Shown: one piece after another, positions 1-64,000 of the stretch
Layout of the letters: each line of letters opens with the position of its first letter
How positions within the stretch are numbered: the first letter of the stretch is position 1
From: an uncultured virus (IMG/VR IMGVR_UViG_3300025803_000010)
Lineage: Duplodnaviria; Heunggongvirae; Uroviricota; Caudoviricetes
Direction: 5' to 3' (one strand)
IMG/VR virus record: IMGVR_UViG_3300025803_000010
Length of the DNA: 64,000 nt
Notes under the pieces: generated by a model
Databases searched by the model: none
Told to the model about the DNA's origin: nothing
What the model saw: only the letters and a program-made list of their open reading frames with translations
Translations under genes and position numbers: made by a program

Positions 1-273
1 TTTTCCATCATGAATAACTGGGTAATCATGTTCACCGATTTCACTTATAATAGTTTCGGCTTTTACGAATTCCCAACCCTCTCTCAGTTTTTTAGATACA
101 TTACCTGGATCTTCAAAACCTGCAGTGTGAGTTCTTATCCATCTGTGTGCATAACCTTGCGGTGCAGCTGGGGCATCCAAACTGGATGGTGGAGTCCAAT
201 CTTTCTTTCTAGAAGTTTTAATTCTAGTTTCAGACTCGCGTGAAGTTTTAATTTTACTTTTAATATTTTCCAT
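1..273 (-). CDS. Conserved head-module protein, truncated by window edge; paralogue of 62161..62625
   Basis: Hand translation from ATG at 273: MENIKSKIKTSRESETRIKTSRKKDWTPPSSLDAPAAPQGYAHRWIR...; open to position 1; shares WTPPSSLDAP and HRW with 62161..62625. Confidence 0.85.
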   Translation of the reverse strand, partial: MENIKSKIKTSRESETRIKTSRKKDWTPPSSLDAPAAPQGYAHRWIRTHTAGFEDPGNVSKKLREGWEFVKAETIISEIGEHDYPVIHDGK

Positions 274-274
274 A

Positions 275-1264
275 TTAGGCTCCTTCTTCCTTCACGTATT
301 TTGCGTATTCCTCTAGTGGCACCCCTAATTTCTTAGCGATAACTACCTGTGATTTGGTGAGTTTCACAGACTTGCGTCCACCTGATCTTCTGCTAACAGA
401 AGCTACGTTTTGGACGGGTGCAGCTTTTGTTTTTTCTTCAGTAGAAGATTGAGCAAATTTCTGAGGGAAATACTCCTTCATACGTTTGTTGATTTGATTA
501 TAGTATTCGTCAGTCTCTGCGTCAATTCCCTGCTGTACTAGATCTTCATGTATTCCCATTGCAGCAGAAGTAAGGACTCTATCTGTACCAAACCACTCAT
601 TATCAGTAGCCCATTCCTGAGCTTTATGGCTAATTTGTGGTTTTGCAGCTACAGTCTCTTCTTTAGGTCTTGACTCAGCTTCTTTCTTTTTCAATTCCTT
701 TTCACCTAAAGACATTGAAACTTTTTCTTTCTCAACAGCTAATTGTGTAAGCTTATCGTTAGCTTCCATAATTTTATCAGCATCTTGAGATTCTAATGCA
801 GCTTTTAAACTTGCTTTTGCTTGTTCTCTTTCTGCATCTACTCTAGCACCATACTCTTTGAGATAATTTGTATCCGTCTCTTCAAATTTTTGCTCAGTAG
901 TTTCGTACTTACTTTTAAGACCTTTAGCATAATCAACTGCAGCACGTTCTCTTCGTTCTGCTTCTTTAATTTGATATGTAAGTTTCTTAATTCTTTTTTG
1001 AACCTTATCAGAATAATCTTTAAGACCTTCTTCGTCTTCAGTTTTTTCTTCTAATTTAGTTTCTCTTTCGTTTTCAAACGTCTTATCTATTTCTTTTTCG
1101 TTTGAATCTGATTCTTGATTACTGACATCTACATAACCTAAGTCAACGTCTTCCTTTTTTTCAAATTCAGCATTGCTTACATTAGGTGCATCAACAGTAA
1201 TTACTTGTTCTTCAACGCCATCTGTGTCTAATTCCACATCTGGACTTTTATTTTCTTCAGCCAT
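275..1264 (-). CDS. Putative capsid scaffolding protein (copy A)
   Basis: Acidic coiled-coil, W-x3-N-x-WFG motif, C-terminal AKKLGVPLEEYAK; follows GroES; GGAGG SD. Confidence 0.75.
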   Translation of the reverse strand: MAEENKSPDVELDTDGVEEQVITVDAPNVSNAEFEKKEDVDLGYVDVSNQESDSNEKEIDKTFENERETKLEEKTEDEEGLKDYSDKVQKRIKKLTYQIKEAERRERAAVDYAKGLKSKYETTEQKFEETDTNYLKEYGARVDAEREQAKASLKAALESQDADKIMEANDKLTQLAVEKEKVSMSLGEKELKKKEAESRPKEETVAAKPQISHKAQEWATDNEWFGTDRVLTSAAMGIHEDLVQQGIDAETDEYYNQINKRMKEYFPQKFAQSSTEEKTKAAPVQNVASVSRRSGGRKSVKLTKSQVVIAKKLGVPLEEYAKYVKEEGA

Positions 1265-1273
1265 TTTTCCTCC

Positions 1274-1720
1274 TTAATAATGGTGCAAAATATCGGCTGG
1301 ATTAGAAATAGTAGAAATAACTTCATCGTCATTCAGTACCCTTACTTCACCACCCTCAATTTTGAATCTTGAACCTGCATACCTACTAAAAATTATCCAA
1401 TCATTTAGTTTGCACCAAGGCCCTTTAGGAAATTTATTATCATCATGATAACAAAGATCTCCCATTTTTAGCACAAGACCACAGACAGTTGTCATCTGTA
1501 TTGTTTCTTGTGTTGTGTCAGATAAATACAGACCGCCTTTAGTCTTCTTTGGCCCTGCATATGGCAGTACCAAAATTCTATAACCAGTAGGTGTCGGTAA
1601 TTTATCTAAGGTTGATTTATCGATCTTTTTAGGATCAAGGACTGTTTCTACTTCATCACGTGTTTTATACGCTTCTAGAAGTGCTTCAGTCCGTTTCGGT
1701 GTCTCCGTGGACTTGTTCAT
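1274..1720 (-). CDS. groES: Co-chaperonin GroES-like (copy A)
   Basis: PTGYRILV, KTKGGLYL, FSRYAG, RVLNDDEV motifs of Cpn10. Confidence 0.9.
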   Translation of the reverse strand: MNKSTETPKRTEALLEAYKTRDEVETVLDPKKIDKSTLDKLPTPTGYRILVLPYAGPKKTKGGLYLSDTTQETIQMTTVCGLVLKMGDLCYHDDNKFPKGPWCKLNDWIIFSRYAGSRFKIEGGEVRVLNDDEVISTISNPADILHHY

Positions 1721-1904
1721 CGTTATACTCCGTTTTTGACAGCAGGTCTTTTATATCCTGTTGCAGATCTTCTAGTGATCTGATTTGACCCCTAACATAT
1801 TGTAGTTTCTCTAGAGTGTCAACACCATATATAGCGTTTTGCTTGTATCTTTCAAGGTTCCTCGCTATAATTTTTTGTAGTAACGATATTGTATCTATAT
1901 CCAT
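1686..1904 (-). CDS. Small conserved hypothetical protein upstream of GroES
   Basis: 72 aa ORF, YVRGQIRSL motif, TAATG coupling to the upstream gene. Confidence 0.7.
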   Translation of the reverse strand: MDIDTISLLQKIIARNLERYKQNAIYGVDTLEKLQYVRGQIRSLEDLQQDIKDLLSKTEYNDEQVHGDTETD

Positions 1905-4192: not shown

Positions 4193-4226
4193 ATTTTTTT
4201 CCTCCACTTAAGCCTTTCCTGCTCAT
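4095..4226 (-). CDS. Small basic protein (43 aa), missing from the ORF track
   Basis: MSRKGLSGGKKYGPPPKRGPNPQG...; ATGA overlap with the portal stop. Confidence 0.7.
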   Translation of the reverse strand: MSRKGLSGGKKYGPPPKRGPNPQGIDIKTSNKYKLVRKIKRKK

Positions 4227-6538
4227 TTTTGATCTAATTTATCTCTTGCAATATCAAGTCTTTCATCTGATTGTTGATCTTGTTGTGCAAGTCGGTCGTA
4301 TTCAAAATCTAATCTAGCTTGTTCTTGTATAGCGTCTTGTTCAGCTTTAAATTTTGTTTCTTGAGCTTTTCTTTGTAAATCCATAGCTCTTAAATCAATT
4401 TCTTGCTGTTTAATTCTTACAAGTGGATCTTCTTTTTTCTGAGCGGCCATTTCTCCTCTTACAAGCTCTTCAGTTATCTCTGCAGCAGCTGTTGCAACAG
4501 CATTATCAAATCTAATTTGAAAATCTTCAGGATTAGTTTGTTGCAATTGCATCATTTGTGGGTCTTCAGCTAACTGTTGCATGACTTCCTGTCTTGCTTT
4601 GAATGAAACGTGGTCAGAAACGTGTGCTTGAAGTAAAGCGTACACCGGTGGATTGATTTGAACCATTCTAGATTGCATAAATGCCATGTGTGCAGCAATA
4701 TGTGCATCGTGATCTTGGAATTCAAAAGCAGTTGCAAACTTCATTTGTAATGCACGTGCATTTTCTTTTGCAGGATCCATAGGTTCAGGTTGTTTCGGTG
4801 GTGGTTTAAGTAAAGTTTCAATTTGTTTTGTACCAAGTGCTTCATAAACACGTCTATATGCTTCATGTAAGTTGTGCATTTGTGGATTTGACTGTGCAAT
4901 TTGCAATTGTGTCTGTGCTAAAGTCACTCTTTGTGACATAGACATAATATTTGGGTCAGCAACAGGTATAATATCGACTCTTTGGTCAAAATCTGCCGCT
5001 TTAATTTCTCTTGGGCCACCATAAACATCGTAAGGATACTCTGGTGGTAAAAATTCACTACAAATTTTACCTAACATTTTAAATTCTAACCTCATTGCAT
5101 AATAACATCGCTTATGAACACCACTCATTACACGAGAACCTCTCTCCATCATTGCAATTGTAGTACCAACAGCTCTGTTTTGAACATCATTACCAATATT
5201 ATTGTCTGTAATAGCTGCAAATTTTTGTCCAGCTTGTACAACAAAACCTAAAAGGTTGTATAAAGTTGTGCTTGGCTCTGTAAATGGAAGATTAAAAAAC
5301 TGATCTCTAATATTTCCACCTGGTGCATCTACATCTCTAAACTCTCCAGGTTGAATTGGTTGGTCATCATCTCTAACTCTAATCCCTCTAGACTTAAATC
5401 CTGCTGGTAAATTTTTCAAAGTACCTGCATCTATTAATTGTCTTAATGTTTGTGTTGCAGCTCTGCTCAAACCACCAATCATATGAGTTAAACCGAATCC
5501 ATAAAAACCTAAACCAGGTAAAAATTTGTAATGTACAAAGTATTCTGTTCTTTGATAGCTAGGATCATTAGGTCTGTAATTTCTATAGATAGATAAAATT
5601 TCTGCTGAGCCTTCATCAATAGTAACAATGTAAGGTATTTTTATTTTTTTAGCTTTGTCATCAAAGTCTTCGTAGTCATCTAAATTTAAATCTACGTGTA
5701 CCTCTAAAATATTATGTAAATAATCTGAACCCGTGCCTTTAACACCTTCAAGTTCATTTAATTTTTTCTGCAATGGATCAGGTTCTGTATTACCTTTAAT
5801 TAATTCTATGTCTCTATAAAAACCTGCTGCTTGTTTTTTAATAACTTCGTTTTGAGTCATCTTAATTGTGTGTGAAATTCTTTCACAATCTTTCAGATCT
5901 GATGCAAAGTAAGGTACAACTAAATCTTCTGCGGGAATAAATTTAGATACTGGTCTACCTAACATTTCATCATAATAAACTTTTTTAAATGTAGATCCGG
6001 ATAATGGTAAATAGAATAACATTTGATCCATATCAGTTGTGTACTCTTCCATTTTATCCATTAATAAGTAATTCATGTATTCTTTAACTCTATCTGCTTG
6101 TTGTTCTGTTGCAGGAGTTTGTAAACCTATAATTTGTGTTCTTACAGGGCCATCACTAGGTATTAATTCTTTATAAGCTTGTGCTTGAAATTGTGTAACT
6201 GATTCTGCAAGTAAAGGGTGAGTAACACCACTTGCACCTTTAAATGGTTTTGTAACCTCTGTGTATTTAGTACCAAGTAAATCTAAGCCTTTGATGTAAG
6301 CATCTTCCCATTCTTTTCTGGATACTCTATCTTTTTTGTATTCATCAATTAAATCAGAAGCCATGGATTTAAGAGTACTCTCATCCATTTCCTCTGCTAA
6401 ATTAGCATTAAAATCTTGCTCAGGAGTTTCCTCAACTTCCTCTTCGCCTTCAACTATTACTTCTGGTGGAAGACCCTCAGGTTGTTCAGTAATTTCTTCT
6501 TCTGATACGATTGTATCGTTATTCTTTTCTACGGCCAT
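4223..6538 (-). CDS. Portal protein
   Basis: 771 aa; HPLLAESVTQFQAQAYKEL, FKKVYYD, FLPGLGFYG, RQLIDAGTL; coiled-coil C-terminus as in P22-like portals; near terL. Confidence 0.9.
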   Translation of the reverse strand: MAVEKNNDTIVSEEEITEQPEGLPPEVIVEGEEEVEETPEQDFNANLAEEMDESTLKSMASDLIDEYKKDRVSRKEWEDAYIKGLDLLGTKYTEVTKPFKGASGVTHPLLAESVTQFQAQAYKELIPSDGPVRTQIIGLQTPATEQQADRVKEYMNYLLMDKMEEYTTDMDQMLFYLPLSGSTFKKVYYDEMLGRPVSKFIPAEDLVVPYFASDLKDCERISHTIKMTQNEVIKKQAAGFYRDIELIKGNTEPDPLQKKLNELEGVKGTGSDYLHNILEVHVDLNLDDYEDFDDKAKKIKIPYIVTIDEGSAEILSIYRNYRPNDPSYQRTEYFVHYKFLPGLGFYGFGLTHMIGGLSRAATQTLRQLIDAGTLKNLPAGFKSRGIRVRDDDQPIQPGEFRDVDAPGGNIRDQFFNLPFTEPSTTLYNLLGFVVQAGQKFAAITDNNIGNDVQNRAVGTTIAMMERGSRVMSGVHKRCYYAMRLEFKMLGKICSEFLPPEYPYDVYGGPREIKAADFDQRVDIIPVADPNIMSMSQRVTLAQTQLQIAQSNPQMHNLHEAYRRVYEALGTKQIETLLKPPPKQPEPMDPAKENARALQMKFATAFEFQDHDAHIAAHMAFMQSRMVQINPPVYALLQAHVSDHVSFKARQEVMQQLAEDPQMMQLQQTNPEDFQIRFDNAVATAAAEITEELVRGEMAAQKKEDPLVRIKQQEIDLRAMDLQRKAQETKFKAEQDAIQEQARLDFEYDRLAQQDQQSDERLDIARDKLDQK

Positions 6539-6546
6539 TCTTTATT

Positions 6547-8490
6547 CTACCTTATGGGTTTAAATAAATCTACTACTAATCCTCCAGTAGATTTATATGT
6601 TTTAAATGTATCTTTCATCATTGGTGTAACCTTTATAGCAAATGAATCAAAATACAAGTTTGGATCGTTATCTGGTACAAATTTATAGCTAAGATCATCA
6701 GCTACTTCTTTACTCATAGTTGCCTTATCGTGAAATATAGATTTAATTCTTTTACCTGCTTTAGGGTGATTATCGGGATATTTAAACTCATCTGTTCTAA
6801 TTTTCTTGTATGGCATTTTGGGATCTGAGAGAGAAATTTTTACTGGCCCCGTGTTTGAATCATAAAACCTACCAACTTTTTTCATTAGGTTTGGCATTAC
6901 AGCTGAGCCTTTACCACCAATTCCCTTACCACTTGCGTAACCATAAAATCTTTCATTACCCGCTTTATAGCCTTGTCTAAAACTTAATTTGTCAAAAGGA
7001 GCAACGGCTACATAATCAACATTTTCTTTAGCTGCTTTATTAAGCAAATATTTTAATGCATGATCACCATAGGAATCTGCTTCAACCATAGGAAAGTAAT
7101 CATACTTTTGTCCACTGCCATAGTTATCAGCTCTCTGCCCATATGTTCTTTGTATTTTTTGATTTACATCTTTCAGGTCTTTGGCAATACTTTGTGCTCT
7201 TCCTGTTAAACCTTTCTTAATAGCTTCATCCATTTCTTTTAACATTTTACTTCTGTTGTTAACAAGTAAACCTAATTCTAAATCTGCTTGAAAAGGATTA
7301 ACACGTTTTTCGCCCCCTAGTTGTTGAAGCTTATTTAAATTTTTTGCAACTGTTTGGTTAGCGTCTGATTGTATTTCGTGAATTAAAAAAGCTTTCTTAC
7401 CATCTGGAGTATAACGTGTATCAAACCTTACGTGGTAGATCATATTTTTATTTACACCATCAAAGTGTCCAAATGTTTTAAAGGGAGAGGAGTTGCCAAC
7501 AATAGGCTCATCTAACTTCATAACAGTTTCTCTATAATTATTTCCCCCTTGTAAGGTATAACTAGCTTCATTACCATATCTTGTAGCTATAGTTTTATCT
7601 TTAAACGGTTGGGTTGTTTTATCAATTTCTCCAATTAATTTATTAACTCTTTGTTTTTCGTTTTGTGATAAATTTGTAGATTTAGATATATTTTTTAATC
7701 TTGTAAGTGATTCTCTAGCAGCAGAGCTTACTTGATCTGCTCCACCTTTCATACCTGATAGTGCATACACCGCTCCATCCAATTCATCTTTGATTGCAGC
7801 TAAACCTTTTATCTCTACAATACTTTGTAGTTTTTTTGCTTCATCAAGTAATTGAGGTTGTGCTTTTTCTAAAGCTTCCACAGCACCTTTAGGTAAACCT
7901 AGTTCAACAGGCTTTAACCTATTTACTGGATTTAATTTTAACATTGCACCTACTTCGTTTGCATCTAGCTTAATACCAAATTTTTTAGCTGCGTATAATA
8001 AGCCTCCAGTTAAATCACCTGCATCATTAAAGATTGCTAAGTTAGAATCAAATAATTCTTCTTTGCTGATTGATACTTCTTTTCCTTGAAAGGGGCCAGA
8101 GTCATATTTAAATCTTTTTTCATCTCTAATAGTTTTTTTAGCTGGTCTACCAAATATTTTAAAGTTAGCTGTTCTCGTTGATGTTAAATGATCTATCCAA
8201 TCCTCTGCACCAAACTTACCTCTTCCTTTTTTCATAACCCAATCGTAAGTCGATGAACCAAACGCAGGAGCTGTCTTGTCTCCCATATATAAGTTTTTAG
8301 TTTTATTTAATGGTTGAGTAACTGCAGGTAAGTTAAGTTCTTTCTTAGCTAACTCTTGCCCAGTTTGTGTTGCTGATTGTTTATCGTAAGTAATAAGTTT
8401 TTGTTGTTGTCCGGTGGCCGGTGAACTTGATACTTTCTTACTTGGTAATAATCGTTTGCCAAGTCCGACTAGAAGAGTCTTCAGGGACAT
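6547..8490 (-). CDS. Putative internal virion (injected) protein with an EIQSD-motif domain
   Basis: NYRE...HF...HVRF...LIHEIQSD motif; C-terminal KSTGGLV; lies between terL and portal. Confidence 0.5.
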   Translation of the reverse strand: MSLKTLLVGLGKRLLPSKKVSSSPATGQQQKLITYDKQSATQTGQELAKKELNLPAVTQPLNKTKNLYMGDKTAPAFGSSTYDWVMKKGRGKFGAEDWIDHLTSTRTANFKIFGRPAKKTIRDEKRFKYDSGPFQGKEVSISKEELFDSNLAIFNDAGDLTGGLLYAAKKFGIKLDANEVGAMLKLNPVNRLKPVELGLPKGAVEALEKAQPQLLDEAKKLQSIVEIKGLAAIKDELDGAVYALSGMKGGADQVSSAARESLTRLKNISKSTNLSQNEKQRVNKLIGEIDKTTQPFKDKTIATRYGNEASYTLQGGNNYRETVMKLDEPIVGNSSPFKTFGHFDGVNKNMIYHVRFDTRYTPDGKKAFLIHEIQSDANQTVAKNLNKLQQLGGEKRVNPFQADLELGLLVNNRSKMLKEMDEAIKKGLTGRAQSIAKDLKDVNQKIQRTYGQRADNYGSGQKYDYFPMVEADSYGDHALKYLLNKAAKENVDYVAVAPFDKLSFRQGYKAGNERFYGYASGKGIGGKGSAVMPNLMKKVGRFYDSNTGPVKISLSDPKMPYKKIRTDEFKYPDNHPKAGKRIKSIFHDKATMSKEVADDLSYKFVPDNDPNLYFDSFAIKVTPMMKDTFKTYKSTGGLVVDLFKPIR

Positions 8491-8500
8491 CGGAAACTCC

Positions 8501-9589: not shown

Positions 9590-9599
9590 AAAAATTCTC

Positions 9600-11345: not shown

Positions 11346-11355
11346 TACTGCGTGA

Positions 11356-13440: not shown

Positions 13441-13467
13441 TGTGTATCTCCTTTTATGTTTGTGGTA

Positions 13468-52284: not shown

Positions 52285-52300
52285 TCATACCTTTTACTTC

Positions 52301-52735: not shown

Positions 52736-52756
52736 AGTAGGCCTCCTTCTAAATTA

Positions 52757-54739: not shown

Positions 54740-54776
54740 CTATTTGTTTTGGTATTGCAGTTCTTCCTATTGGCAT
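54645..54776 (-). CDS. Small basic protein (43 aa), missing from the ORF track
   Basis: MPIGRTAIPKQIDGKLRGARDEKKKKR... Confidence 0.45.
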   Translation of the reverse strand: MPIGRTAIPKQIDGKLRGARDEKKKKRRVISKLYRKKPKVFKV

Positions 54777-55498: not shown

Positions 55499-55971
55499 AC
55501 AAGTTCTTTGGCTGATCCTAATATTGGTTTATATTTAGTTCTTCCCTCTGATTTATACGCATGTAAAAAACTAGCTCTTGGTGTTCCTTCAATCCAACTG
55601 CAATGTATCCATCCGCTGTTAGGTTCTCCAGGCGTATAGTATTCGAGGATCAGTTGATCTGGCTCAAGGTTATTTTTAATCCAATCAAAAAGTTCAGCGT
55701 TGTCGACTCCAACACATTCGAAGTCTGCGGCTTCAGCTTTGGCATGCTGCGAATTTGCAGAGCTGCCAATAGCCATACATAAATCCACGCTTCGAAATCC
55801 ACTGGTTACCTTAACTCTGCCGAAGTGATCACGTACTGGCTGTAAAATATTTTCACACAAACCTTTTAATTTTTCTATTTGTTCTGCGTTAGGATTATTA
55901 TTAATTCCCTTCCTAATTGCAGTATCTGATTTAGTTAACTCTGAAAGAGTAAAATTACGGCTTAAGTTCAT
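55495..55971 (-). CDS. Peptidase M15A endolysin
   Basis: SGFR, SQH...AAD, WIH motifs. Confidence 0.9.
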   Translation of the reverse strand: MNLSRNFTLSELTKSDTAIRKGINNNPNAEQIEKLKGLCENILQPVRDHFGRVKVTSGFRSVDLCMAIGSSANSQHAKAEAADFECVGVDNAELFDWIKNNLEPDQLILEYYTPGEPNSGWIHCSWIEGTPRASFLHAYKSEGRTKYKPILGSAKELV

Positions 55972-56476
55972 AGTTTTCCTTTAGTTCTAATACAATATTT
56001 AAATTAAATCTGAATTTGTTGTAAATTGGTGGACTTCCACAATGCAAGATATTGCTATTAAAGATTTTAGCTTGTCTTGGTTTATCATAATGTTTCTCGT
56101 CATTTATAATTGTATAACCATCGTCATCGATGCTATACACAATTGACAAAAAGTTATCATCATTCTCATCAACATGTAAAGACCCTACTGCTGATTTAGT
56201 ATATAAATTGTAATAATATCTTACAACATCTGCATTTATATTTAATTTTTTTTTAATTCTTGCAGCAATTGTATCTGCTATTTCAGTTAATTCTTTATTT
56301 TCTTTTGAAGTGTTTATGTTTTGTTTTGATTGTGGAATGCAGCAAAAACCATTATCAACAGTATAACCGTTTTTAGCATTATCTATAGATATACGCCAAT
56401 CGGAACATATCAATAGTAATTGTTTTAAATTTTCGTTTTCTTTTCTATCTAAAACTTCTTCGATTTTTTGAATCAT
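55955..56476 (-). CDS. 2OG-Fe(II) oxygenase-like protein
   Basis: HVD...SIVY...LHCG..P...RFNLN. Confidence 0.7.
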   Translation of the reverse strand: MIQKIEEVLDRKENENLKQLLLICSDWRISIDNAKNGYTVDNGFCCIPQSKQNINTSKENKELTEIADTIAARIKKKLNINADVVRYYYNLYTKSAVGSLHVDENDDNFLSIVYSIDDDGYTIINDEKHYDKPRQAKIFNSNILHCGSPPIYNKFRFNLNIVLELKENYELKP

Positions 56477-56689
56477 CTACTCCAGTATTAGCTTCTTTAT
56501 CGATAAACTTCCATCAATATTTTTTTCTAATTCTGCTTTTGATTTAATACATTGGTAAGAAACATTATTGTCTATTGCTCTTGAAGCTACTCTTTTACCT
56601 TTTAAACAATCACTCATAGAAACTTGTATTCTATGTTCTTTAATTTCATTATTTACTATCATTAGTAAAGCCACAACTGTTTCAATCAT
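56477..56689 (-). CDS. Small secreted-type protein
   Basis: Hydrophobic N-terminus, two Cys. Confidence 0.6.
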   Translation of the reverse strand: MIETVVALLMIVNNEIKEHRIQVSMSDCLKGKRVASRAIDNNVSYQCIKSKAELEKNIDGSLSIKKLILE

Positions 56690-56850
56690 AATACTTTACC
56701 TTTGTTTTGTCCTTGTTTAATGACATACTTTTGTGTACCATGTTTGCCAGTTTCAACTTCTTTTTTTAAATTTCTTATAAAGCTCATTTGTTTAGCTTTC
56801 TTTTCCATATCACTAATGTACTCAACTATTTTTCTAGTGACTCGTCCCAT
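56686..56850 (-). CDS. Small basic protein (54 aa), missing from the ORF track
   Basis: MGRVTRKIVEYI...GTQKYVIKQGQNKGKVL; ATGA overlap. Confidence 0.55.
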   Translation of the reverse strand: MGRVTRKIVEYISDMEKKAKQMSFIRNLKKEVETGKHGTQKYVIKQGQNKGKVL

Positions 56851-57211
56851 TTGCTCTAACCTTATCTTTTAAATCTTCAATATCACTTAATGCTTTTTCT
56901 AATTGATCTCTTAAAAATTCTATATTAACTTTATTAGTCATATTCATCTCTTGAGTTTCTTCCATTTTTTCTACAGATTTATATAAATCTTCTAATAAAA
57001 AATGTTGTTCTTGATCTACAGGTACTTGTTCAGATTTTTTAAGCAAATCATTTTCAAACAATTCTCTTGAAGTTTCTAACGATACTAACCTTGAAGTTAG
57101 TTCTGTATATGCAAATACACCCATAGCTACTAAAATAATTAAACTAGCAACTGTTTTCATTGGCATTTGCACAGCAGCCGATTCTGATATGTTAAGTGGT
57201 TTATTTGCCAT
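56834..57211 (-). CDS. Membrane-anchored coiled-coil protein (possible spanin-like)
   Basis: One N-terminal TM segment then coiled coil; near the endolysin. Confidence 0.5.
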   Translation of the reverse strand: MANKPLNISESAAVQMPMKTVASLIILVAMGVFAYTELTSRLVSLETSRELFENDLLKKSEQVPVDQEQHFLLEDLYKSVEKMEETQEMNMTNKVNIEFLRDQLEKALSDIEDLKDKVRANGTSH

Positions 57212-57453
57212 TTTTTTTCTTTTTTGGTTTAGATTCCATAGCTTTGGCTATTGCTGCACAAAGACGGTCTATTCCTCCGAAAAATTTATATAAAAATTTA
57301 TCAATCATCTATTTTAGGTTTTGGTAAAGGAATTATAATATCTTTTGAATCAAATTTCAATGAAGTGTGAGACGATGGTCTTACAAATAAAGCTAATAAA
57401 CACATCAATATAATTAGTATTGCAGTAAACCCATAGTTCATTTTGGGACTCCA

Positions 57454-57615
57454 TTAAGTTAACCAATTTTTTATCTTCTCCCAGAAAGCACTTATTTTAG
57501 TTATATTTTTACCGTTGTGATTGCATTTTTGACAATCGCAGCTAGGACAATTTCCAACTGTACCTTGACCAGGACAATGACATACGTGATTACAATTTAA
57601 ACACATTTTCCTCAT
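57454..57615 (-). CDS. Small Cys/His-rich protein (53 aa), missing from the ORF track
   Basis: MRKMCLNCNHVCHCPGQGTVGNCPSCDCQKCNH...; ATGA overlap with the upstream gene. Confidence 0.65.
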   Translation of the reverse strand: MRKMCLNCNHVCHCPGQGTVGNCPSCDCQKCNHNGKNITKISAFWEKIKNWLT

Positions 57616-58253
57616 TTTTTTTTCTCCATTTCGTAAAACATATTATCACTATCTTCAGTAACTAATCCAGAGTCCTCTGCATCCCAATACGTAGTTTGGA
57701 CTTTATAGTCTGGCCAGCTGTTATCAGTAGTATAACTATTAACGTGCCACAAAATGCGATTATTAGGCTGAGCTGCATAATTGCCGTTATCAAGAGCCAA
57801 TATGTGTGCACACTTATGTTCTTGAGGAATTTCAGAATGCTCGGTATCCAATATGTTAGTTTCTGGATGAGCCCAGTCAACTGTAAATAAATATTTTCCA
57901 TGTAAAAACTTTTTATCTAAACCTCTGTATTTACCGTTTAAACCAGCCAACCAATCAAAACAATGAACAGAAGGATAATAGCTAAAACAATTCCAAAGTT
58001 GAAGTTCACTAAGTCTTTGAGTGGGAACAGTTTCCGGTTGAAAACCACGTTGAATAAAAGCCGAAATTGGGATTCTCCAAAAGCACGCACCGTTGGGTAG
58101 CATGATATTAAATAATAACGCACGGCCTGATATCGATACCAAACCGAAGACAACGCAATCGTCAACTTCGCCTTGATGTTGTTTAAGATCATAAAGGTAC
58201 TCCTTTCTTACCTGACAATAAATTGGTGGTATGTTAGCATTTAAATAAGACAT
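57612..58253 (-). CDS. Conserved phage hypothetical protein
   Basis: YLNANIP, LQLWNCFS, YLFTVDW, EHKCAH, AAQPNNR. Confidence 0.75.
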   Translation of the reverse strand: MSYLNANIPPIYCQVRKEYLYDLKQHQGEVDDCVVFGLVSISGRALLFNIMLPNGACFWRIPISAFIQRGFQPETVPTQRLSELQLWNCFSYYPSVHCFDWLAGLNGKYRGLDKKFLHGKYLFTVDWAHPETNILDTEHSEIPQEHKCAHILALDNGNYAAQPNNRILWHVNSYTTDNSWPDYKVQTTYWDAEDSGLVTEDSDNMFYEMEKKK

Positions 58254-58256
58254 AGT

Positions 58257-58706
58257 CTAACATTTCCATCTACGTCTCGCTTGTCTGATTCTTGAATTTG
58301 GATCATTTCTAGTTTCTGCACTAGATCTTTTTAACTGACCTAGGCTTCTAGCACAATAACTTTTTCTTCTATTTGCTGCTTTAGATCCTTTTTTAACTTT
58401 ACCTGTTACTGCTGTTTTTAGTTTAGATCCAGGATTAGCACGTCTATATGCTGCAACACCTGCAGATGTCATACCTGCTCCTGATTTTGTTGATCTATAA
58501 TTTTTTTTATTTCTAGCAATTGGTTTCTCAGTTTCTCCACCTCTGCTAAATTTTTTTTTAAATTTTATTTTGAATTGACCATCTGCTTTTACACCAATGT
58601 CTAATCTAGAATTTTCAGTTGATTTACCAACATTAATAAAAACTTTTTCATCACTAGGATCGATACCTAAATTTAAATCTGAATAATAGCTTTTATCTTT
58701 AGACAT
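58257..58706 (-). CDS. Basic conserved phage protein (DUF6321-like)
   Basis: NPGSKLK, RRKSYCAR, C-terminal RRWKC. Confidence 0.7.
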   Translation of the reverse strand: MSKDKSYYSDLNLGIDPSDEKVFINVGKSTENSRLDIGVKADGQFKIKFKKKFSRGGETEKPIARNKKNYRSTKSGAGMTSAGVAAYRRANPGSKLKTAVTGKVKKGSKAANRRKSYCARSLGQLKRSSAETRNDPNSRIRQARRRWKC

Positions 58707-58707
58707 C

Positions 58708-58998
58708 TTACGTAAATGTAATTGAAACGTTTGGGCAATTAGTTACTGTGACGTGAACACCTTCTTCAAATAAAATACCTGAACCTGGAATATAAAGATC
58801 TAAACCTTCTGTTCCAAATCCATAAGTAGCTATTACATTTCCTGATCCTCCTCCACTTCTAAAAACTAAAAGTGCTGATGCAATACCTTCTCCTTGAATA
58901 GAAGTAACTCTTGCTCTTCTTCCTGTTGGAACTAATTGACCAGTTGCTGTAGCATGGGCATTACCCTGATCTGATGTAAAACTTCCTCCACCTGACAT
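58708..58998 (-). CDS. Small virion protein
   Basis: IPGSGILF motif; resembles 59002..59334. Confidence 0.65.
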   Translation of the reverse strand: MSGGGSFTSDQGNAHATATGQLVPTGRRARVTSIQGEGIASALLVFRSGGGSGNVIATYGFGTEGLDLYIPGSGILFEEGVHVTVTNCPNVSITFT

Positions 58999-59001
58999 AA
59001 A

Positions 59002-59334
59002 TTATCCGTTCTGTCCCGTTAAGTTAGGCCCTGAAAATTTATCAGTTAATAAAGTAACTGCTGTTACATTTGTTGCTGTAGATAAATAAAGTCCGTTAGT
59101 AAATAGTATTCCATCTTCAGGTAATGAAAAATTAATTACGTCTCCAGATGGTACATCGGCTGTAAATAAATTTGTACCACCAGATGAAGATCCCGTATTT
59201 AAAGATACTTGACCAGCACCACCCCCATCAGAAGCAATAATCATTCCTTTAAGTCTTACAGGAGAAGCAATAACCACATTCGATGTTGCAGTTCCCGCTA
59301 CTCTTGTTGCTTGTATATCAGCTTTAGCTGCCAT
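59002..59334 (-). CDS. Small virion protein (own start inside the fused 311-aa ORF)
   Basis: ATG at 59334 after AAGGAG; LPEDGILF motif. Confidence 0.7.
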   Translation of the reverse strand: MAAKADIQATRVAGTATSNVVIASPVRLKGMIIASDGGGAGQVSLNTGSSSGGTNLFTADVPSGDVINFSLPEDGILFTNGLYLSTATNVTAVTLLTDKFSGPNLTGQNG

Positions 59335-59352
59335 AAAATTCTCCTTTAATTT

Positions 59353-59372
59353 GTGGCTCCCGAAGGAGCCAC
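59353..59372 (-). other. cUUCGg tetraloop hairpin between two genes
   Basis: Minus strand GTGGCTCC-TTCG-GGAGCCAC. Confidence 0.75.
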
Positions 59373-59381
59373 GATTAATTG

Positions 59382-59937
59382 TTACGCTGCAAATGCAAAA
59401 TGCACCTGTTACAGCTGCTGCTGCACCAGTGAATTCAGTTGCAATTGTCCATGTACCATCTTCAAAACACATGAAAGCAATTTTGCTACCAGTTGTTAAA
59501 AGATTAGTTGCTGCATCAGCTGGAGTGAAAACTAATTGTGTTTCACCTGCTGCTGAAGTATCAAAAGTTACTTCATTTGCTGCTCTTGATTCTATTAAAG
59601 AACCAGTCGCCCAAACATCAGTTCCAGCTGCATTAAAAGTTAAAGTTGCAGTTCCGCCAGCTGTGTCTTTAGATTGAACGTAAACAGCGATCGCACCTTT
59701 AGTTGCTGCTGGTAATGCTACAGCGCATGCTGCTGCACCTGTGTAGTTTACAGCTGCAATAATTCCATCAGCGATAGAAATGTTTGCACCTGTTGCTGTG
59801 TCAGCAAAAAGTAAACCTGTTATGTCAGGCATACCTGAGCTGTATCTTGTTGTTACAGCACCAGTAACAGAATTTTTAACAGCGACTTGAAAGCCACCTT
59901 CTGATCTGACCGGTCCTGAAAATGTAGTATTTGCCAT
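59382..59937 (-). CDS. Capsid-associated protein (MANTTFSGPVRS family) with an apparent +1 nt frameshift near the 3' end
   Basis: Removing one T from TTTT (59397-59400) gives ...TGAFAFAA-stop at 59382, just before a hairpin and the next SD. Confidence 0.65.
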
Positions 59938-59945: not shown

Positions 59946-60017
59946 CCTCCTAGTTTTTTGAACATAGTCTCTAGGCCGTCGACTATACGCGTCTATGTTC
60001 TAATTAATTGTATAGTG
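59946..60017 (-). ncRNA. Candidate structured 5'-leader RNA
   Basis: 8-bp stem 59960-67/59993-60000; loop segments complementary to 60010-16 and to the SD region 59949-53. Confidence 0.5.
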
Positions 60018-60099: not shown

Positions 60100-60315
60100 T
60101 TACGTAGCTACAGATACGTCAGGTGCAGCGTCTTCTATCTTATTAGTCTGTTGAGCAACTTGTGCTTCAGCTAATTTGATATGACTGATGACTTGTCTTA
60201 TTTTGTCATCAATCCTTACCATATCAAGAGTATATCTTTTCTCCTGATTATAGTGCTGCGACCATTCAAGTTCTAGTCCTCTTTTCTTCGTGTAGAGTTC
60301 CTGAACGTGTGTCAT
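60100..60315 (-). CDS. Hypothetical coiled-coil protein; paralogue of 20625..20813
   Basis: VQELYTKKRGLELEW...DMVRIDDKI; SD GAGGAGG inside the upstream gene. Confidence 0.75.
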   Translation of the reverse strand: MTHVQELYTKKRGLELEWSQHYNQEKRYTLDMVRIDDKIRQVISHIKLAEAQVAQQTNKIEDAAPDVSVAT

Positions 60316-60502
60316 TTATAACCTCCTCATAGGTTAACCACAATTTGGATTTACTAGTAAATCCGTCTTTTTCCCAGACTATATCATTTTGTCCTAGTTT
60401 GTCAACTAGTGCATTTTCAAAGGCTTTATCATTATCCTCACATATAAGGTTGAAGATAGCATGATAGCCATATGCTCTGATTTGTACTCGGAAATTTTTC
60501 AT
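60266..60502 (-). CDS. Hypothetical protein; paralogue of 20435..20713
   Basis: MKNFRVQ...NDKA...LTYEEV. Confidence 0.7.
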   Translation of the reverse strand: MKNFRVQIRAYGYHAIFNLICEDNDKAFENALVDKLGQNDIVWEKDGFTSKSKLWLTYEEVINDTRSGTLHEEKRTRT

Positions 60503-60570: not shown

Positions 60571-61482
60571 TTAAGCACCTTCAACGCCGAAGATACCTCT
60601 GAAGTCAGATACTCCAAATGAGTATCTTTCTCTAGCTTTGTATCTTACGTTTCCAGTATCGAAGTCACCTTCCATAGCTGTTTTGATAGGTGATCTATCA
60701 AAGTACTTCATTCCATTAGGTATATCTGTAATGATGTAGAACGCATCTGTATCTGTGATGTAATTGTTCACTCTGTAACCTTGAGGAACCATTCCCATAG
60801 AAACGATTGCATTGATATCATTATCAGCTGTTCCTGTTCTACCTTGAGATTTCATCAATCTCTCAGCAGTGAATTGAAGTTCGCTAGGTACAATCATTTT
60901 CACGCCTCTTGCAGCAATTTTAAGACCTCTTTCGTCTGTCATTGCAGCAATATCGATTAAAGATTGCTCTAGTGAAGTTTCGTTTAAGTCAGCTTGAGTA
61001 GCCAATGTGTTCGCAACATTACCCGCTATTGTTGGGTGAGCTGTATTGAACAATGAAACACCGTCACCAGAAGTGAATGTAGCAGTTGAAGGTAAACCAT
61101 TGATTAATGGGTTAACAGCTTTAACTTGCTTAGTGTTTGACATTGATCTAGCTAATGCTTTTGTATATCTAGACGCAAGTCTATCATACAAATTGTCTTC
61201 GATCGCCTCTTCAGTTATTGCGAAAGCAAGAGCCACAGTTTCGTGTGTGTATCTCGCAGTGTAAGTCTCTTGAGCATTGTCAAAAGCTATTCCACTTCCT
61301 TCCGGTTTAACTTGAGCTTGAGCGAAGCCAGATAACATAACTTCTTCTTCAAACGCTCTGTCTGATGATTCTGAAGTGTATATTTCAGCATGCTGATTTT
61401 CGTATCTTTTATATTCCAGGCCGAATAGTGCATTCAATCCTGGCTCTAGTTCTTTAACTAGTTGTCCTCTTGATATAGCCAT
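60571..61482 (-). CDS. Major capsid protein
   Basis: MAISRGQLVKELEPGLNALFG, ITEEAIEDNLY, GDGVSLF..AHP, YKARERYSFG; follows scaffold genes; strong terminator. Confidence 0.92.
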   Translation of the reverse strand: MAISRGQLVKELEPGLNALFGLEYKRYENQHAEIYTSESSDRAFEEEVMLSGFAQAQVKPEGSGIAFDNAQETYTARYTHETVALAFAITEEAIEDNLYDRLASRYTKALARSMSNTKQVKAVNPLINGLPSTATFTSGDGVSLFNTAHPTIAGNVANTLATQADLNETSLEQSLIDIAAMTDERGLKIAARGVKMIVPSELQFTAERLMKSQGRTGTADNDINAIVSMGMVPQGYRVNNYITDTDAFYIITDIPNGMKYFDRSPIKTAMEGDFDTGNVRYKARERYSFGVSDFRGIFGVEGA

Positions 61483-61503
61483 AATTATTCTCCTATTCTC
61501 CTA

Positions 61504-62082
61504 TTATACGCCATTTACGTTCATATCTAACTCATGCTCGTTGATTCTAACGATCCAATTTACGTTAGCTGCGCCAACGGTATTGTTTGATGGATCTCTA
61601 GATACGCCGAGAATTTGTAAAGTTGCAGAAGAGCCAGCAGCTAATGTGCTGTCGTCTAATTCAACTTGTGATACGAAGTCCGGAGAACTACCTGCTGCAT
61701 ACACGATATCTGCAACGTTGAAGATATCAGTTGTAGCGGAAGCCCCCGCATTATTAGATTGTATCTCAAACCTTTCATAAGGGTCATCAGAAATGAAACC
61801 AACAATGTCTGTTGCAGTGTTAGAAGCATTTAGGTGATTCGCATATGTAGGCTTGCTTGTGTTAGCATCAGTAAAGAAGATACCAGTGAGTGCTCCTGTT
61901 ATAGCTCCGCCTGCGCCTGCTACTACTATTGTACCTGTGTTTGCCATTTTCACAGCATCACCTTGGTAAATAGCTGTTGCATTAGCTGCAATGCTATATT
62001 CGGATAAACCTTGGTTGTCTCTATTCTGGCCAACTTTGCCGATCGGTCTTAAACCGAAAGGTGCGTCTTGGTTAGTTGCCAT
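61504..62082 (-). CDS. Capsid cement / decoration protein
   Basis: APFGLRP, IYQGDAV; directly upstream of the major capsid gene. Confidence 0.7.
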   Translation of the reverse strand: MATNQDAPFGLRPIGKVGQNRDNQGLSEYSIAANATAIYQGDAVKMANTGTIVVAGAGGAITGALTGIFFTDANTSKPTYANHLNASNTATDIVGFISDDPYERFEIQSNNAGASATTDIFNVADIVYAAGSSPDFVSQVELDDSTLAAGSSATLQILGVSRDPSNNTVGAANVNWIVRINEHELDMNVNGV

Positions 62083-62160
62083 ATTGTTTCTCCTTTTGCA
62101 AAACCACTCAACGTAGTTTTGCGGTTAATGTTAATTCGTTGGGTAGGAATCGTTAAAAAA

Positions 62161-62625
62161 TTAACTTTTCTTTGAACCACCGAAAGTTACACGAGTCTGT
62201 CTATCAACATTGATAGGCATACTTGGATGCTCTTCCTTCATAAGATCGTTATCTGATGCTTTGACCTTTTCTTGATGCTGATTAGCATAATACTCTTGTC
62301 TTTGTTGCGCGATCTCATCAGGTACTCTAGCGAGCACTAGGCCGCCTACTCCGATTACTCCCTTGTATTTGCCATCGTCCACAGTTGGAAAATCTGAGTC
62401 AGGGTATTCATCCGATCTAACTAATTCATAACCAGATCTTAATCTGCCTTGAATATTTTTAGAATCATTGAATCCTAATGACTCGGCTCTTAACCATCTG
62501 TGCCTAAATCCTGTCGGCGCAGGGGGTGCATCTAAAGATGACGGTGGAGTCCAAACTTTTTTTCGAGATTCTTTATCTCTAGTCTGACTCGCACGGGAAG
62601 TTTTCTTTTCTGTTATTTTATTCAT
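62161..62625 (-). CDS. Conserved head-module protein (copy B)
   Basis: WTPPSSLDAP, HRWLR, IGVGGLVLAR. Confidence 0.8.
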   Translation of the reverse strand: MNKITEKKTSRASQTRDKESRKKVWTPPSSLDAPPAPTGFRHRWLRAESLGFNDSKNIQGRLRSGYELVRSDEYPDSDFPTVDDGKYKGVIGVGGLVLARVPDEIAQQRQEYYANQHQEKVKASDNDLMKEEHPSMPINVDRQTRVTFGGSKKS

Positions 62626-62629
62626 ATGC

Positions 62630-63610
62630 TTATACCTCCTTCGTGATTTTTAATTGTTTCGCATACTCTTCAAGTGGCACACCTAATTTTTTAGCGATTG
62701 ATACCTGTGATGATGTGAGTCTCACAGTTCTGCGACCTGATTTTGTACTTCGCTTCGCTGAAGCTACTGTTTGTACTGGCTTGGTCGTTGTATTTTCAGC
62801 CGTATCGCTATTATTACCAAATTTATGAGGAAATGCAACTCTTATTCTTTTGTCTATTTCCTTATAATATTCATCACTTGATGTGTCATAACCTTCTTCT
62901 TCAGTAAGCTTCTTATGCAAATCCATAGCGGTGTATGTCATCGCATTATCACTTCCAAACCAAGAGTTTTTCTCAGCCCATGATTCTGCTCTAGGATCAG
63001 GAGTATCTTGTTTAGGAGCAATTGCTTCCCTTAAATTAGGTTGTTTTACTTCTTGTTGTTTAGCTGCTGTTTCTTGAGCTTCCTTGGCCTCAAGATACTT
63101 AGCTTTTCTATATCCTAATTCAGATATAGATGTTTGAGCATCAATCTCAGCTTGAAGATCACTTGCTTCCCTTGCTGCTGCAAGTTTAGCTTTAGCGGCT
63201 TCTAAACCAGAATTAATACTTTGTTCTGTCGCTGATAAAAAACCAGGTTCTAATTTACTTAGTTTGTTTTTTATCGTTTTTTGTTCTGCAACAACTAACT
63301 CAGCGTATTTTAAAGCTTCATCTTTTTGTCTTTCAGCTTCTCTCCACTTTTTAGTTAGTTTTGCAATTCTTTTTTGTACTCCTGTAGAGTACTCTTCTAA
63401 TTCTTTCTTTTCTTGAGGCTCCTCTTTTGTTTCTACTTGAGGTGCTTCTTCTTTCTGTTCTTCAACAACCGTTTCTTCTTTAGTTTCTACTTCAGGTTCA
63501 GTTGTGGGTTGTTCTACAACTTCTTCCTTTTTTTCTTCAGCGATATCAATATCAGCGCCTGGGCCTGATGTATCTATATCAACTGTTTTGTTTTCTTCTA
63601 CGTCTGGCAT
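62630..63610 (-). CDS. Putative capsid scaffolding protein (copy B)
   Basis: YS..VQKRI.KLT, WAEKNSWFG, AKKLGVPLEEYAK. Confidence 0.75.
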   Translation of the reverse strand: MPDVEENKTVDIDTSGPGADIDIAEEKKEEVVEQPTTEPEVETKEETVVEEQKEEAPQVETKEEPQEKKELEEYSTGVQKRIAKLTKKWREAERQKDEALKYAELVVAEQKTIKNKLSKLEPGFLSATEQSINSGLEAAKAKLAAAREASDLQAEIDAQTSISELGYRKAKYLEAKEAQETAAKQQEVKQPNLREAIAPKQDTPDPRAESWAEKNSWFGSDNAMTYTAMDLHKKLTEEEGYDTSSDEYYKEIDKRIRVAFPHKFGNNSDTAENTTTKPVQTVASAKRSTKSGRRTVRLTSSQVSIAKKLGVPLEEYAKQLKITKEV

Positions 63611-63625
63611 AGTTTCCTCCTATGA

Positions 63626-64000
63626 TTAATATTGATGAAGTATGTCTTGTGGATTTTCGATGGTTGCTAACACTTCATCATCATTTAGCAATCTTACTTC
63701 TCCTCCATCGATTTGTATTCGGCTACCTGCATATCTTGCAAAGATAACCCAATCTCCTTTTTTACACCAAGGTCCTTCTGGAAATTTTTCTTTATCATAA
63801 CAATGTGGTCCCATTGCTAAAACTAAACCACAAGTAGATCCTACTTGTTGTCTTTCCAAAGTATCTTGGCCTAAATACAAACCACCTTTAGTTTTTTCTG
63901 GCATTTTAAAAGGAAGAATTAACATTCTCCAACCAGTTGGGTTTGGTAATTTATTTGATTCTTTTGTTTTTAAACGTTCGTACCCTTCAACTTCTTTTTG
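63626..64000 (-). CDS. groES: Co-chaperonin GroES-like (copy B), 5' end beyond the window
   Basis: LPNPTGWRMLILP, KTKGGLYL, FARYAG, RLLNDDEV; frame stays open to the window edge. Confidence 0.9.
   Translation of the reverse strand, partial: QKEVEGYERLKTKESNKLPNPTGWRMLILPFKMPEKTKGGLYLGQDTLERQQVGSTCGLVLAMGPHCYDKEKFPEGPWCKKGDWVIFARYAGSRIQIDGGEVRLLNDDEVLATIENPQDILHQY

Follow-up and report, generated by a model that had tools for sequence, protein, structure and literature searches.

Tailed phages exchange modules in a mosaic fashion at conserved boundary sequences, a process known as modular evolution. Metagenome assemblies contain cross-strain and cross-species chimeric contigs as well as over-length contigs, of the kind that CheckV warns about. 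The closest described relatives of the DNA analysed here, a 64,000-base stretch that we call the window, are the HTVC023P-type pelagiphages, for which PMC9599517 reports genomes averaging 58,776 ± 2,523 (n=82), with GroES among 13 core genes. The best DNA matches were Pelagibacter phages HTVC027P, HTVC023P and 023Pt_psg01 (genomes of 57.6–60.9 kb); HTVC027P covered 62% of window 57000–64000 at 73.9%, and HTVC023P covered 39% of window 1–8000 at 69.4%. This family also gave the best protein matches. The core gene set, with GroES, terminase, helicases and DNA polymerase among its members, was recovered through PHROG and Pfam matches and, judged by its sequence, the window is HTVC023P-type pelagiphage (SAR11 phage) DNA.

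The window resembles these phages in its gene order (portal, GroES, scaffold-like, WTPPSSLDAP, 192-aa protein, major capsid protein [MCP]), in its GroES-like core gene and in the ~62 kb size of one of its parts, the A unit, which falls within the family's range. It is unlike them in that the contig exceeds the length of a single genome, draws on two lineages (A and B) and has two head modules, which were found in none of the family members examined: the 5/5 near-complete relatives and the 9/9 deposited phages with a match had one scaffold locus each.

Two diverged copies of a head-gene trio

GroES-like, scaffold-like and WTPPSSLDAP genes were found at 1–1720 (copy A) and again at 62161–64000 (copy B), in identical order and all on the - strand, with an offset of ~62,350 bases between the copies (Table 1). 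When the two copies were compared by BLASTP, the identities were far above chance: 65% for GroES (E 5e-56), 40% for the scaffold-like protein (E 5e-45) and 52% for WTPPSSLDAP (E 4e-31). The motifs AKKLGVPLEEYAK, GPWC and WTPPSSLDAP occurred in copy A and copy B alike, and the reading frames were intact in both head modules. In DNA, just two stretches aligned, of 399 and 288 bases, at 67–68% identity. The original prediction, that the trio stands at both window ends in one order and on one strand, with motifs common to both copies despite extensive divergence and ends that are not a terminal repeat, was confirmed by the gene coordinates and by these comparisons (proteins 65/40/52%, DNA about 68%).

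Table 1. Features of the window, in order of coordinates.
Feature	Coordinates	Strand	Remarks
WTPPSSLDAP protein, copy A	1..273	-	N-terminal 91 aa, cut by window edge; phrog_36003, unknown function
Scaffold-like coiled-coil protein, copy A, 329 aa	275..1264	-	phrog_28737, unknown function
GroES-like co-chaperonin, copy A, 148 aa	1274..1720	-	Pfam Cpn10 35.4 bits (cut-off 21.1); phrog_3188
A-type portal	4223..6538	-	PHROGs
Two unknown genes between A-type portal and large terminase	within 4223..11075	-	PHROGs
Large terminase, A-type	9600..11075	-	PHROGs
Backbone: replication, ejection, tail and lysis genes	11336..57248	.	whole covered by independent IMG/VR contig G001
A-type genes p213, p149 (DUF6321), p96 and 110-aa gene (59002-59334), just downstream of head block	57150..59348	-	L164-L166
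Apparent 311-aa ORF	59002..59937	-	gpN (~184 aa in relatives) and 110-aa gene, fused in frame
Junction zone, in gpN (59385-59937)	59349..59904	-	close to neither nearest A nor nearest B contigs
Conserved structured leader	59949..60016	-	three covarying helices; single occurrence in window
p71	60100..60315	-	0/80 A-fetched, 38/80 B-fetched loci
p78	60266..60502	-	0/80 A-fetched, 42/80 B-fetched loci
B-type MCP	60571..61482	-	Pfam Phage_capsid_4 49 bits (cut-off 27); phrog_371 / phrog_37556 reported for 60571..62082 pair
192-aa protein adjoining B-type MCP	61504..62082	-	phrog_371 / phrog_37556 reported for the pair
WTPPSSLDAP, copy B	62161..62625	-	trio copy B
Scaffold-like, copy B	62630..63610	-	trio copy B
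GroES-like, copy B	63626..64000	-	cut by window edge; full gene 153 aa, start outside window

The scaffold-like protein of copy A was 45–83% identical to 80/80 A-fetched loci and 34–44% to 80/80 B-fetched loci, and that of copy B was 48–100% identical to 80/80 B-fetched loci. Since, by these pairwise identities, the copies are not each other's closest relatives (A versus B, 40%), an origin as paralogues from an in-genome duplication was rejected. The window's portal was 47–84% identical to A-fetched and 27–58% to B-fetched loci. The full copy A WTPPSSLDAP gene, read from an independent contig (L164) that is 100% identical over window 1–2910, encodes 159 aa. This full protein has no record on the source contig, which appears to be 74,824 bp long and to extend ~10.8 kb further into B, and the gene probably runs past the end of that contig too. 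PDB sequence searches found no meaningful match to WTPPSSLDAP, the scaffold-like protein or the 192-aa protein (best E 0.37). The labels "scaffold", suggested by position and composition, and "decoration", a presumptive role of the 192-aa protein judged from its place, stay position-based.

A closed A-type circle and a B-type block

Window 1 to ~59,350 covers an A-type genome in one complete turn. After its identity to window 1–2910, L164 continued with an A-type 191-aa gene, the A-type MCP and gpN, the small gene that follows the head block, and then rejoined window 59222–59348. L165/L166 matched window 1–2486 at 98.4% and window 57150–59380 at 98.1%, on one and the same contig. As these independent contigs run from the A head block back onto ~59.2–59.4 kb, the A circle closes on itself, giving an A unit of 59,221 + 2,649 = 61,870 bp. 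A complete A-type record, G002 (59,212 bp, 77-base end overlap, CheckV 100%), was collinear with window 1–59,937 and wrapped from MCP to gpN, with TerL at 88% and portal at 87%. The nearest record, G001 (45,915 bp), corresponded to window 57248–11336 at 99.97%; it is without both head blocks, and it stops at 57,248 and 11,336, away from the junction. Among the marker genes, p213 was present in 22/80 A-fetched and 0/80 B-fetched loci, HNH and p192 were confined to A-fetched loci, and p71/p78 to B-fetched loci.

From ~59,905 to 64,000, the sequence is that of a B-type phage. L084 was 100% identical over window 60372–64000, L272 was 99.2% identical over 59909–64000 and L259 97.0% over 59851–62136, the latter two then diverging. 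Past the junction, L272 and L259 carry genes just 66–67% like window 53.7–54.3 kb. Of 43 B-type contigs, 35 reach at least 1 kb beyond the junction, and 34 of these are without a homologue of window 57,250–59,400; the remaining contig (L285) had one 200-base match to it at 73%. A scan of JGI metagenomes with a 36-mer from p71/p78 returned nine contigs, all B-type relatives at 73–86% identity and none of them near-identical. Near relatives of p71/p78 are also recorded on contigs of 61,265 and 61,391 bp. Base composition did not set the B block apart from the rest of the window.

Depth was taken from zero- or one-mismatch Logan unitigs of ≤1 kb in four studies (X1, X2, X3 and X7), all of other samples than the source. 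Among the unitigs listed, the backbone at 52–59.3 kb had depths of 6.3–11.7 in X1, 78–125 in X2, 14.5–19 in X3 and 7.5–17 in X7, and the B block at 62.2–63.3 kb had depths of 17–22.5, 292–416, 90 and 65.5, respectively. The B block was 2–6 times deeper than the backbone in 4/4 runs among these unitigs, at a ratio that varied among studies, with unitig depth reflecting the strains that share that exact unitig, such that a more diverse backbone would look shallower. The depth step is therefore suggestive but not decisive. None of the unitigs listed bridges 59.3–62.2 kb; the pieces are ≤1 kb and so uninformative on spanning, and joints with one short side (for example 57131 to 63677, with 21 bases on that side) were set aside as spurious. 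Exact copies of nine B proteins occurred on 26–169 contigs and those of six A and backbone proteins on 12–47.

The junction in gpN

The A/B junction lies between 59,349 and 59,904, inside gpN. L164 had 0 mismatches over 59222–59348 and its mismatches start at 59349, and L272, L259 and the group of L267 lose identity at 59851–59925. The window's gpN allele in between (59,349–59,904) was near-identical in none of the fetched contigs, and a 40-mer from the window's gpN gave 0 matches in IMG/VR, and thus no independent copy of that allele. Within this zone, the 77 bases at 59516–59592 are identical in A-type (L164, L202, L175) and B-type (L180, L225) contigs, and exact blocks of 77–104 bases at 59489–59592 are common to contigs of both types, a shared length sufficient for the assembly graph to collapse.

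The fusion of gpN with the 110-aa gene results from a one-base length difference near 59397. In 5/5 relatives aligning there, a stop is followed by a hairpin and a ribosome binding site and then by a separate ATG. One contig alone carries the exact 311-aa protein, and each of the 10 remaining proteins in its 90% cluster is 110 aa long. Because contigs over 59,397 in runs X1–X3 match the window in length, with no difference among the unitigs listed, an assembly error need not underlie the frame fusion. The N-terminal part of gpN is 79–94% identical downstream of A-type and B-type MCPs alike and, since the best match of 94% occurs with both MCP types, it is not lineage-diagnostic. For the stretch from p71 to the leader, the nearest sequences are those of a second B group (L267, 50/50 identical over 59951–60050), unlike the window's B-type MCP, for which they are L272/L084.

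No other intergenic sequence common to the A and B lineages is as conserved as the leader that precedes gpN. No Rfam family reached threshold on the whole window or on the leader. A PreQ1-I riboswitch was considered and rejected, with a score of 12.2 bits versus a gathering threshold of 39 (E 5.1) and with the A-rich tail and CUAGG missing from the leader's second sequence class. Among the papers listed by a literature search for RNA motifs, riboswitches or pseudoknots in pelagiphages, none contained the word pelagiphage.

Origin of the contig

The contig is very probably a cross-lineage misassembly of two related, co-occurring HTVC023P-type pelagiphages. One parent would be present in full, as an A-type genome whose unit measures ~61.9 kb. 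The other, a B-type phage of higher abundance, would contribute ~15 kb, comprising a packaging and head block that ends with MCP, p78 and p71. The join would fall inside gpN, the gene after the head block in both lineages; gpN and its leader are conserved enough to provide the exact stretches of 77–104 bases. There the assembly graph would collapse, and a path entering from the B head block would leave into the A backbone and circle the A genome once, into the A head block, yielding a contig that is longer than a genome and has two head modules. We infer that the assembler, rather than natural recombination, made this join. The samples behind L164, L272 and L259 differ from that of the source contig. 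Independent assemblies pair the two sides with other sequence (A in L164–L166 and G002, B in L272 and L259). In this the contig is like other chimeric metagenome contigs, as it is in being over-length, in having its join in sequence common to both parents and in differing from side to side in prevalence and, among the unitigs listed, in depth; it is unlike them in that its redundant ends are just ~68% identical, and repeat- or k-mer-based concatemer checks would therefore miss it.

The original prediction of one full ~62 kb circuit of lineage A followed by a lineage B head module was borne out by the same contigs, and its guess of 58.5–60.5 kb for the junction holds. Among the causes it had offered, only an assembly chimera gained support, from A closing on itself, B going elsewhere, the suggestive 2–6 fold depth step and the single head module in 5/5 near-complete relatives and 9/9 deposited phages.

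A natural recombinant, with a B packaging/head block on an A backbone, coexisting with an A strain so that the assembler walked a strain bubble, is unlikely. On the circular genome, the path would then run from the B block through the shared backbone to the A block; the join in gpN would be real, and the modules would still belong to two genomes. Mosaicism is indeed common in the region, as seen in the N-terminal part of gpN beyond both MCP types and in the different nearest groups of the p71-leader stretch (L267) and the MCP (L272/L084), and G001 breaks at both backbone ends, as expected at a bubble. However, a shared backbone should be at least as deep as the B block, and it was 2–6 times shallower in all four runs among the unitigs listed. 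The 34/35 B-type contigs without the following A block (the other having its 200 bases at 73%) also speak against such a recombinant, as do both near-identical B contigs, which diverge at the junction, and the junction-spanning ORF, which was found on 1 contig versus 26–169 and 37–47 for its neighbours.

Were the join real, the promoter, structured leader and gpN start could act as a recombination linker that swaps whole packaging/head blocks, the contig being a recombinant or hetero-concatemer of co-infecting HTVC023P-type phages, which we consider highly unlikely. Such a swap would be like mosaic module exchange in that A gives way to B where a conserved promoter, a leader and the start of a gene lie between the head block and the next, and natural contigs do show gpN alleles shuffled between head types. 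It would be unlike it in that no independent contig shows this exchange, and the contig is therefore not evidence that the exchange occurred.

Still less probable is a real molecule, either a ~77 kb phage with two packaging/head blocks or a tandem or hetero-concatemer recombined at gpN. The join lies in conserved sequence, where recombination is plausible, and both head modules have intact reading frames, although a chimera built from two live phages should have them just as well. Family genomes measure 58.8 ± 2.5 kb in PMC9599517, with one module in each of the near-complete relatives; the A-type MCP joins gpN, not the B block, in L164–L166 and G002; and depth differs between the parts among the unitigs listed. 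Nothing supports a two-capsid-module phage or a tandem genome.

Terminal redundancy, circular overlap or a recent in-genome duplication would put one set of genes at the two ends, roughly a genome length from each other, as the ~62.35 kb offset does, but is hardly conceivable, since the copies have diverged too far for it: the ends are diverged orthologues of two lineages, at 67–68% DNA identity over two short stretches (G002, with its 77-base exact overlap, shows the true form), each scaffold copy has 80 closer relatives elsewhere (A 45–83%, B 48–100%, versus 40%), and the flanking genes differ (p71/p78 versus none, p192/HNH versus none).

If the contig is a cross-lineage misassembly, it calls for caution, in that two lineages with redundant ends just ~68% identical may be joined into a contig larger than one genome, and such a chimera might be taken for an unusually large or novel genome. 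For the family, the comparison tells apart two HTVC023P-type architectures, A-type and B-type, by their marker genes and by the position of the lysis/accessory block, and the leader and gpN mark the boundary at which the two lineages are mosaic.

Divergent head-gene trios and the phage gene set

Trios of GroES-like, scaffold-like and WTPPSSLDAP proteins were found at both ends of the window (1–1720, copy A, and 62161–64000, copy B) in the same gene order, as originally noted, on the minus strand, which carries nearly all of the long ORFs. Copies A and B share 65% protein identity in the GroES-like protein (E 5e-56), 40% in the scaffold-like protein (E 5e-45) and 52% in the WTPPSSLDAP protein (E 4e-31). 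Only two stretches of the window ends could be aligned in DNA, at 67–68% identity; these ends are not a terminal repeat, as originally stated.

PHROG and Pfam scans of the window revealed one complete phage gene set. On the minus strand, it starts with GroES(B), scaffold-like(B), WTPPSSLDAP(B), a 192-aa protein and an HK97-type major capsid protein (MCP), followed by small genes, tail/fibre/lysis genes and ejection proteins, then by exonuclease, helicases, primase, DNA polymerase and small terminase, and ends with large terminase, portal, GroES(A), scaffold-like(A) and WTPPSSLDAP(A). The top DNA matches were Pelagibacter phages HTVC027P and HTVC023P and phage 023Pt_psg01, with genomes of 57.6–60.9 kb. 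Excerpts of the published description of the HTVC023P-type group give a genome size averaging 58,776 ± 2,523 (n = 82) and list the GroES co-chaperonin as one of 13 core genes (PMC9599517). Given these genome sizes, the window spans more than one genome length.

The genes matching 2OG-Fe(II) oxygenase and endonuclease V PHROGs, together with the halogenase-like and ferrochelatase genes, form an unusually large paralogous accessory set. A 41-base direct repeat (8569–8609 and 8854–8894, 95% identity) lies within a 362-aa gene adjoining the terminase. The G+C content of 12001–14000 is 44%, compared to 29–39% elsewhere in the window, and PHROG matches are few or absent among the ORFs of this stretch.

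Features of the window, with the number of A- and B-fetched loci carrying each lineage marker
Feature	Position	Strand	Remarks	A-fetched	B-fetched
WTPPSSLDAP protein, copy A	1–273	-	truncated by window edge		
Scaffold-like protein, copy A	275–1264	-	329 aa		
GroES-like protein, copy A	1274–1720	-	148 aa		
p192	1904–2482			40/80	0/80
HNH	3791–4207			25/80	0/80
Portal	4223–6538	-	PHROG/Pfam		
Large terminase	9600–11075	-	PHROG/Pfam		
2OG-Fe(II) oxygenase (six genes)	21009–21524, 23526–24107, 24428–24994, 42035–42682, 46136–46687, 47971–48576		PHROG matches		
"Endonuclease V" (three genes)	14380–14898, 46680–47204, 55955–56476		PHROG matches		
Tryptophan-halogenase-like	15178–16629				
Ferrochelatase-annotated	47420–47983				
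p213	57612–58253			22/80	0/80
p149	58257–58706		DUF6321 C-terminal module		
311-aa ORF	59002–59937		gpN fusion		
Leader	60,016–59,949	-	once in window		
p71	60100–60315			0/80	38/80
p78	60266–60502			0/80	42/80
HK97-type MCP	60571–61482	-	PHROG/Pfam		
WTPPSSLDAP protein, copy B	62161–62625	-			
Scaffold-like protein, copy B	62630–63610	-			
GroES-like protein, copy B	63626–64000	-			

Two lineages and their genomes

The window genes were compared with 80 IMG/VR loci fetched with scaffold-like copy A and 80 fetched with copy B. For each trio copy, 80 relatives on other contigs were closer than the second copy in the window, so that the two represent orthologues of separate lineages rather than paralogues. 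Scaffold-like copy A was 45–83% identical to A-fetched and 34–44% to B-fetched loci, copy B 37–56% and 48–100%, and the portal 47–84% (37 hits) and 27–58% (29 hits), respectively. Judged by this gene comparison, the window appears to be A-type below ~59.9 kb and B-type above ~60.1 kb.

Lineage A closes on itself. The 5,559-bp contig L164 matches window 1–2910 at 100% identity, runs on through the remainder of WTPPSSLDAP(A) into A-type genes for a 191-aa protein and an MCP (75% to the window MCP), then into gpN, a small gene downstream of the head block, and is identical to the window again at 59222–59348. Two further contigs, L165 and L166, are 98.4% identical to window 1–2486, and each of them also matches 57150–59380 (98.1%) and 51621–56998 (94.3%), with an A-type MCP between. 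From these matches, the A unit is 59,221 + 2,649 = 61,870 bp. The A-type record G002 (59,212 bp, 77-base end overlap, CheckV completeness 100%) is collinear with window 1–59,937 and wraps from MCP to gpN, and record G001 (45,915 bp, estimated 73% complete) corresponds to window 11336–57248 at 99.97% identity. With this A unit and the B markers above ~60.1 kb, the predicted full lineage-A circuit joined to a lineage-B head module was borne out.

The B block has another partner. Contig L084 matches window 60372–64000 at 100% identity, and the gene content upstream of GroES(B), seen in this contig, differs from that upstream of GroES(A). In A-type genomes, the DUF6321 module of p149 (...RRKSYCARSLGQLKRS...RRRWKC) is located downstream of the head genes; in B-type contigs, a protein ending in this module is found upstream of GroES (L084:1–131), its identity to the window copy being 98% in protein and 76% in DNA. 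Contigs L272 (99.2% to window 59909–64000) and L259 (97.0% to 59851–62136) depart from the window at the junction, and their next genes are only 66–67% like window 53.7–54.3 kb. Among 43 B-type contigs (9 JGI, 34 IMG/VR), 35 reach at least 1 kb past the junction, and 34 of these have no homologue of window 57,250–59,400, the exception being a 200-base match of 73% in L285. In G005 (L293–L295), a B-type genome that is 99% complete, homologues of the lysin, p125 and p213 lie at 20–24 kb, between packaging and replication genes, which explains the absence of lysin and p213 after gpN in B-type contigs. In A-type genomes this block (window 55.4–58.3 kb) follows the head genes; the two genome types differ in architecture.

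For each of the 10 window proteins looked up, and for three ORFs beyond window 64,000 placed by L084, the longest contig on record has 74,824 bp (JGI/IMG). This does not hold for three A-type proteins of L164, namely the complete WTPPSSLDAP(A), the 191-aa protein and the MCP. We infer that the source contig is this one of 74,824 bp, ending near window position 1 and extending ~10.8 kb further into lineage B, so that ~15 kb of B would be joined to ~59.4 kb of A.

The junction inside gpN and its origin

B-type support stops at ~59,905: in 50-base bins, L272 matches 50/50 down to 60,251 and 32/50 at 60,001–60,050, and the L267 group 50/50 over 59,951–60,050 and 15/50 at 59,851–59,900. A-type support begins at 59,348. 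The 556 bases between lie within gpN; their top fetched matches are just ~90% identical, and a 40-mer from this zone had no match in IMG/VR. Positions 59,489–59,592 (104 bases) are identical in the A-type L202, 59,498–59,592 in L164, and 59,516–59,592 in the B-type L180 and L225. Thus, an exact sequence is common to both lineages at the join, of the kind that lets a path in an assembly graph pass from one lineage to the other.

A one-base length difference near 59397 puts gpN and the next gene, of 110 aa, into one frame, giving the 311-aa ORF. In all five relatives aligned at 59334–59400, the genes are separated by a stop, a hairpin (GTGGCTCC-TTCG-GGAGCCAC, with a UUCG loop), an RBS and a new ATG. 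The exact 311-aa protein was found in one contig only, all 10 other members of its 90% cluster being 110 aa long. Since unitigs over 59,397 from sequencing runs X1–X3 agree in length with the window at this site, the fusion may have arisen naturally rather than through an error.

Parts of 55,001–64,000 are covered by 19 runs from 11 studies, of which four (X1, X2, X3 and X7, from four studies) were used for depth. In zero- or one-mismatch unitigs, a contig-level measure from other samples that strain diversity can lower, backbone depth (52.0–59.3 kb) was 6.3–11.7, 78–125, 14.5–19 and 7.5–17, respectively, and that of the B block (62.2–63.3 kb) 17–22.5, 292–416, 90 and 65.5. The B block was thus 2–6 times deeper, at a ratio differing by run, which suggests that backbone and B block are not at a fixed one-to-one proportion. 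None of the unitigs listed for the four runs bridged the junction. Exact-protein prevalence agreed with the depth difference: B proteins occurred in 26–169 contigs (GroES 138, p80 143, p62 125, WTPPSSLDAP 112, scaffold-like 67, 192-aa 54, MCP 77, p78 26, p71 169), and A and backbone proteins in 12–47 (GroES 29, scaffold-like 16, portal 12, TerL 18, p213 37, p96 47).

Most probably, the contig is a cross-lineage misjoin: the two lineages would have been joined within a conserved gene, gpN, and the path would then have gone round the circular A genome. Of the causes originally proposed, an assembly chimera is therefore the one we favor. A natural recombinant strain carrying B on A, combined with a strain-bubble walk, is unlikely, as it conflicts with the greater depth of the B block and with all of the B-type contigs seen. 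A real tandem or two-module molecule, also among the proposed causes, was without support and is very improbable; the scaffold-like gene occupies one place in 9/9 deposited phage records having a match and one locus in 5/5 near-complete IMG/VR relatives (59–63 kb), that of G004 being broken into two by a TAG. Terminal redundancy or in-genome duplication has next to no likelihood, since the divergence between copies A and B refutes it.

A structured leader upstream of gpN

Directly upstream of gpN is a conserved leader, with homologues at 126 places among the fetched loci (85 distinct sequences, 50 of which were chosen for alignment). It has three covarying helices, ACTATAC/GTATAGT, GAACATAG/CTATGTTC and CCTAG/CTAGG. 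Helix 2 crosses helices 1 and 3, so that the leader forms either a double pseudoknot or several alternative folds. In the 50-sequence alignment, 95.6% of cells were paired, compared to 75.3% in shuffles and 16–38% with slid partners, and both sides changed in 12 of 20 pairs. Pairing was 100% in helix 2, where a pair could be of up to six types; in helices 1 and 3, much of the variation separates two sequence classes and may stem from few events. Among the unpaired bases, TAG-AC, GAC and TAG.GAC-TA never vary. A promoter-like sequence stands before the leader: TTGCAC, 17 nt and TATATC in one class, a terminator plus TGTATAAT in the other. Rfam searches of the whole window and the leader gave no family at threshold, the top hit being PreQ1 at 12.2 bits vs. 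39. The leader is a candidate for a new cis-regulatory RNA in HTVC023P-type pelagiphages.
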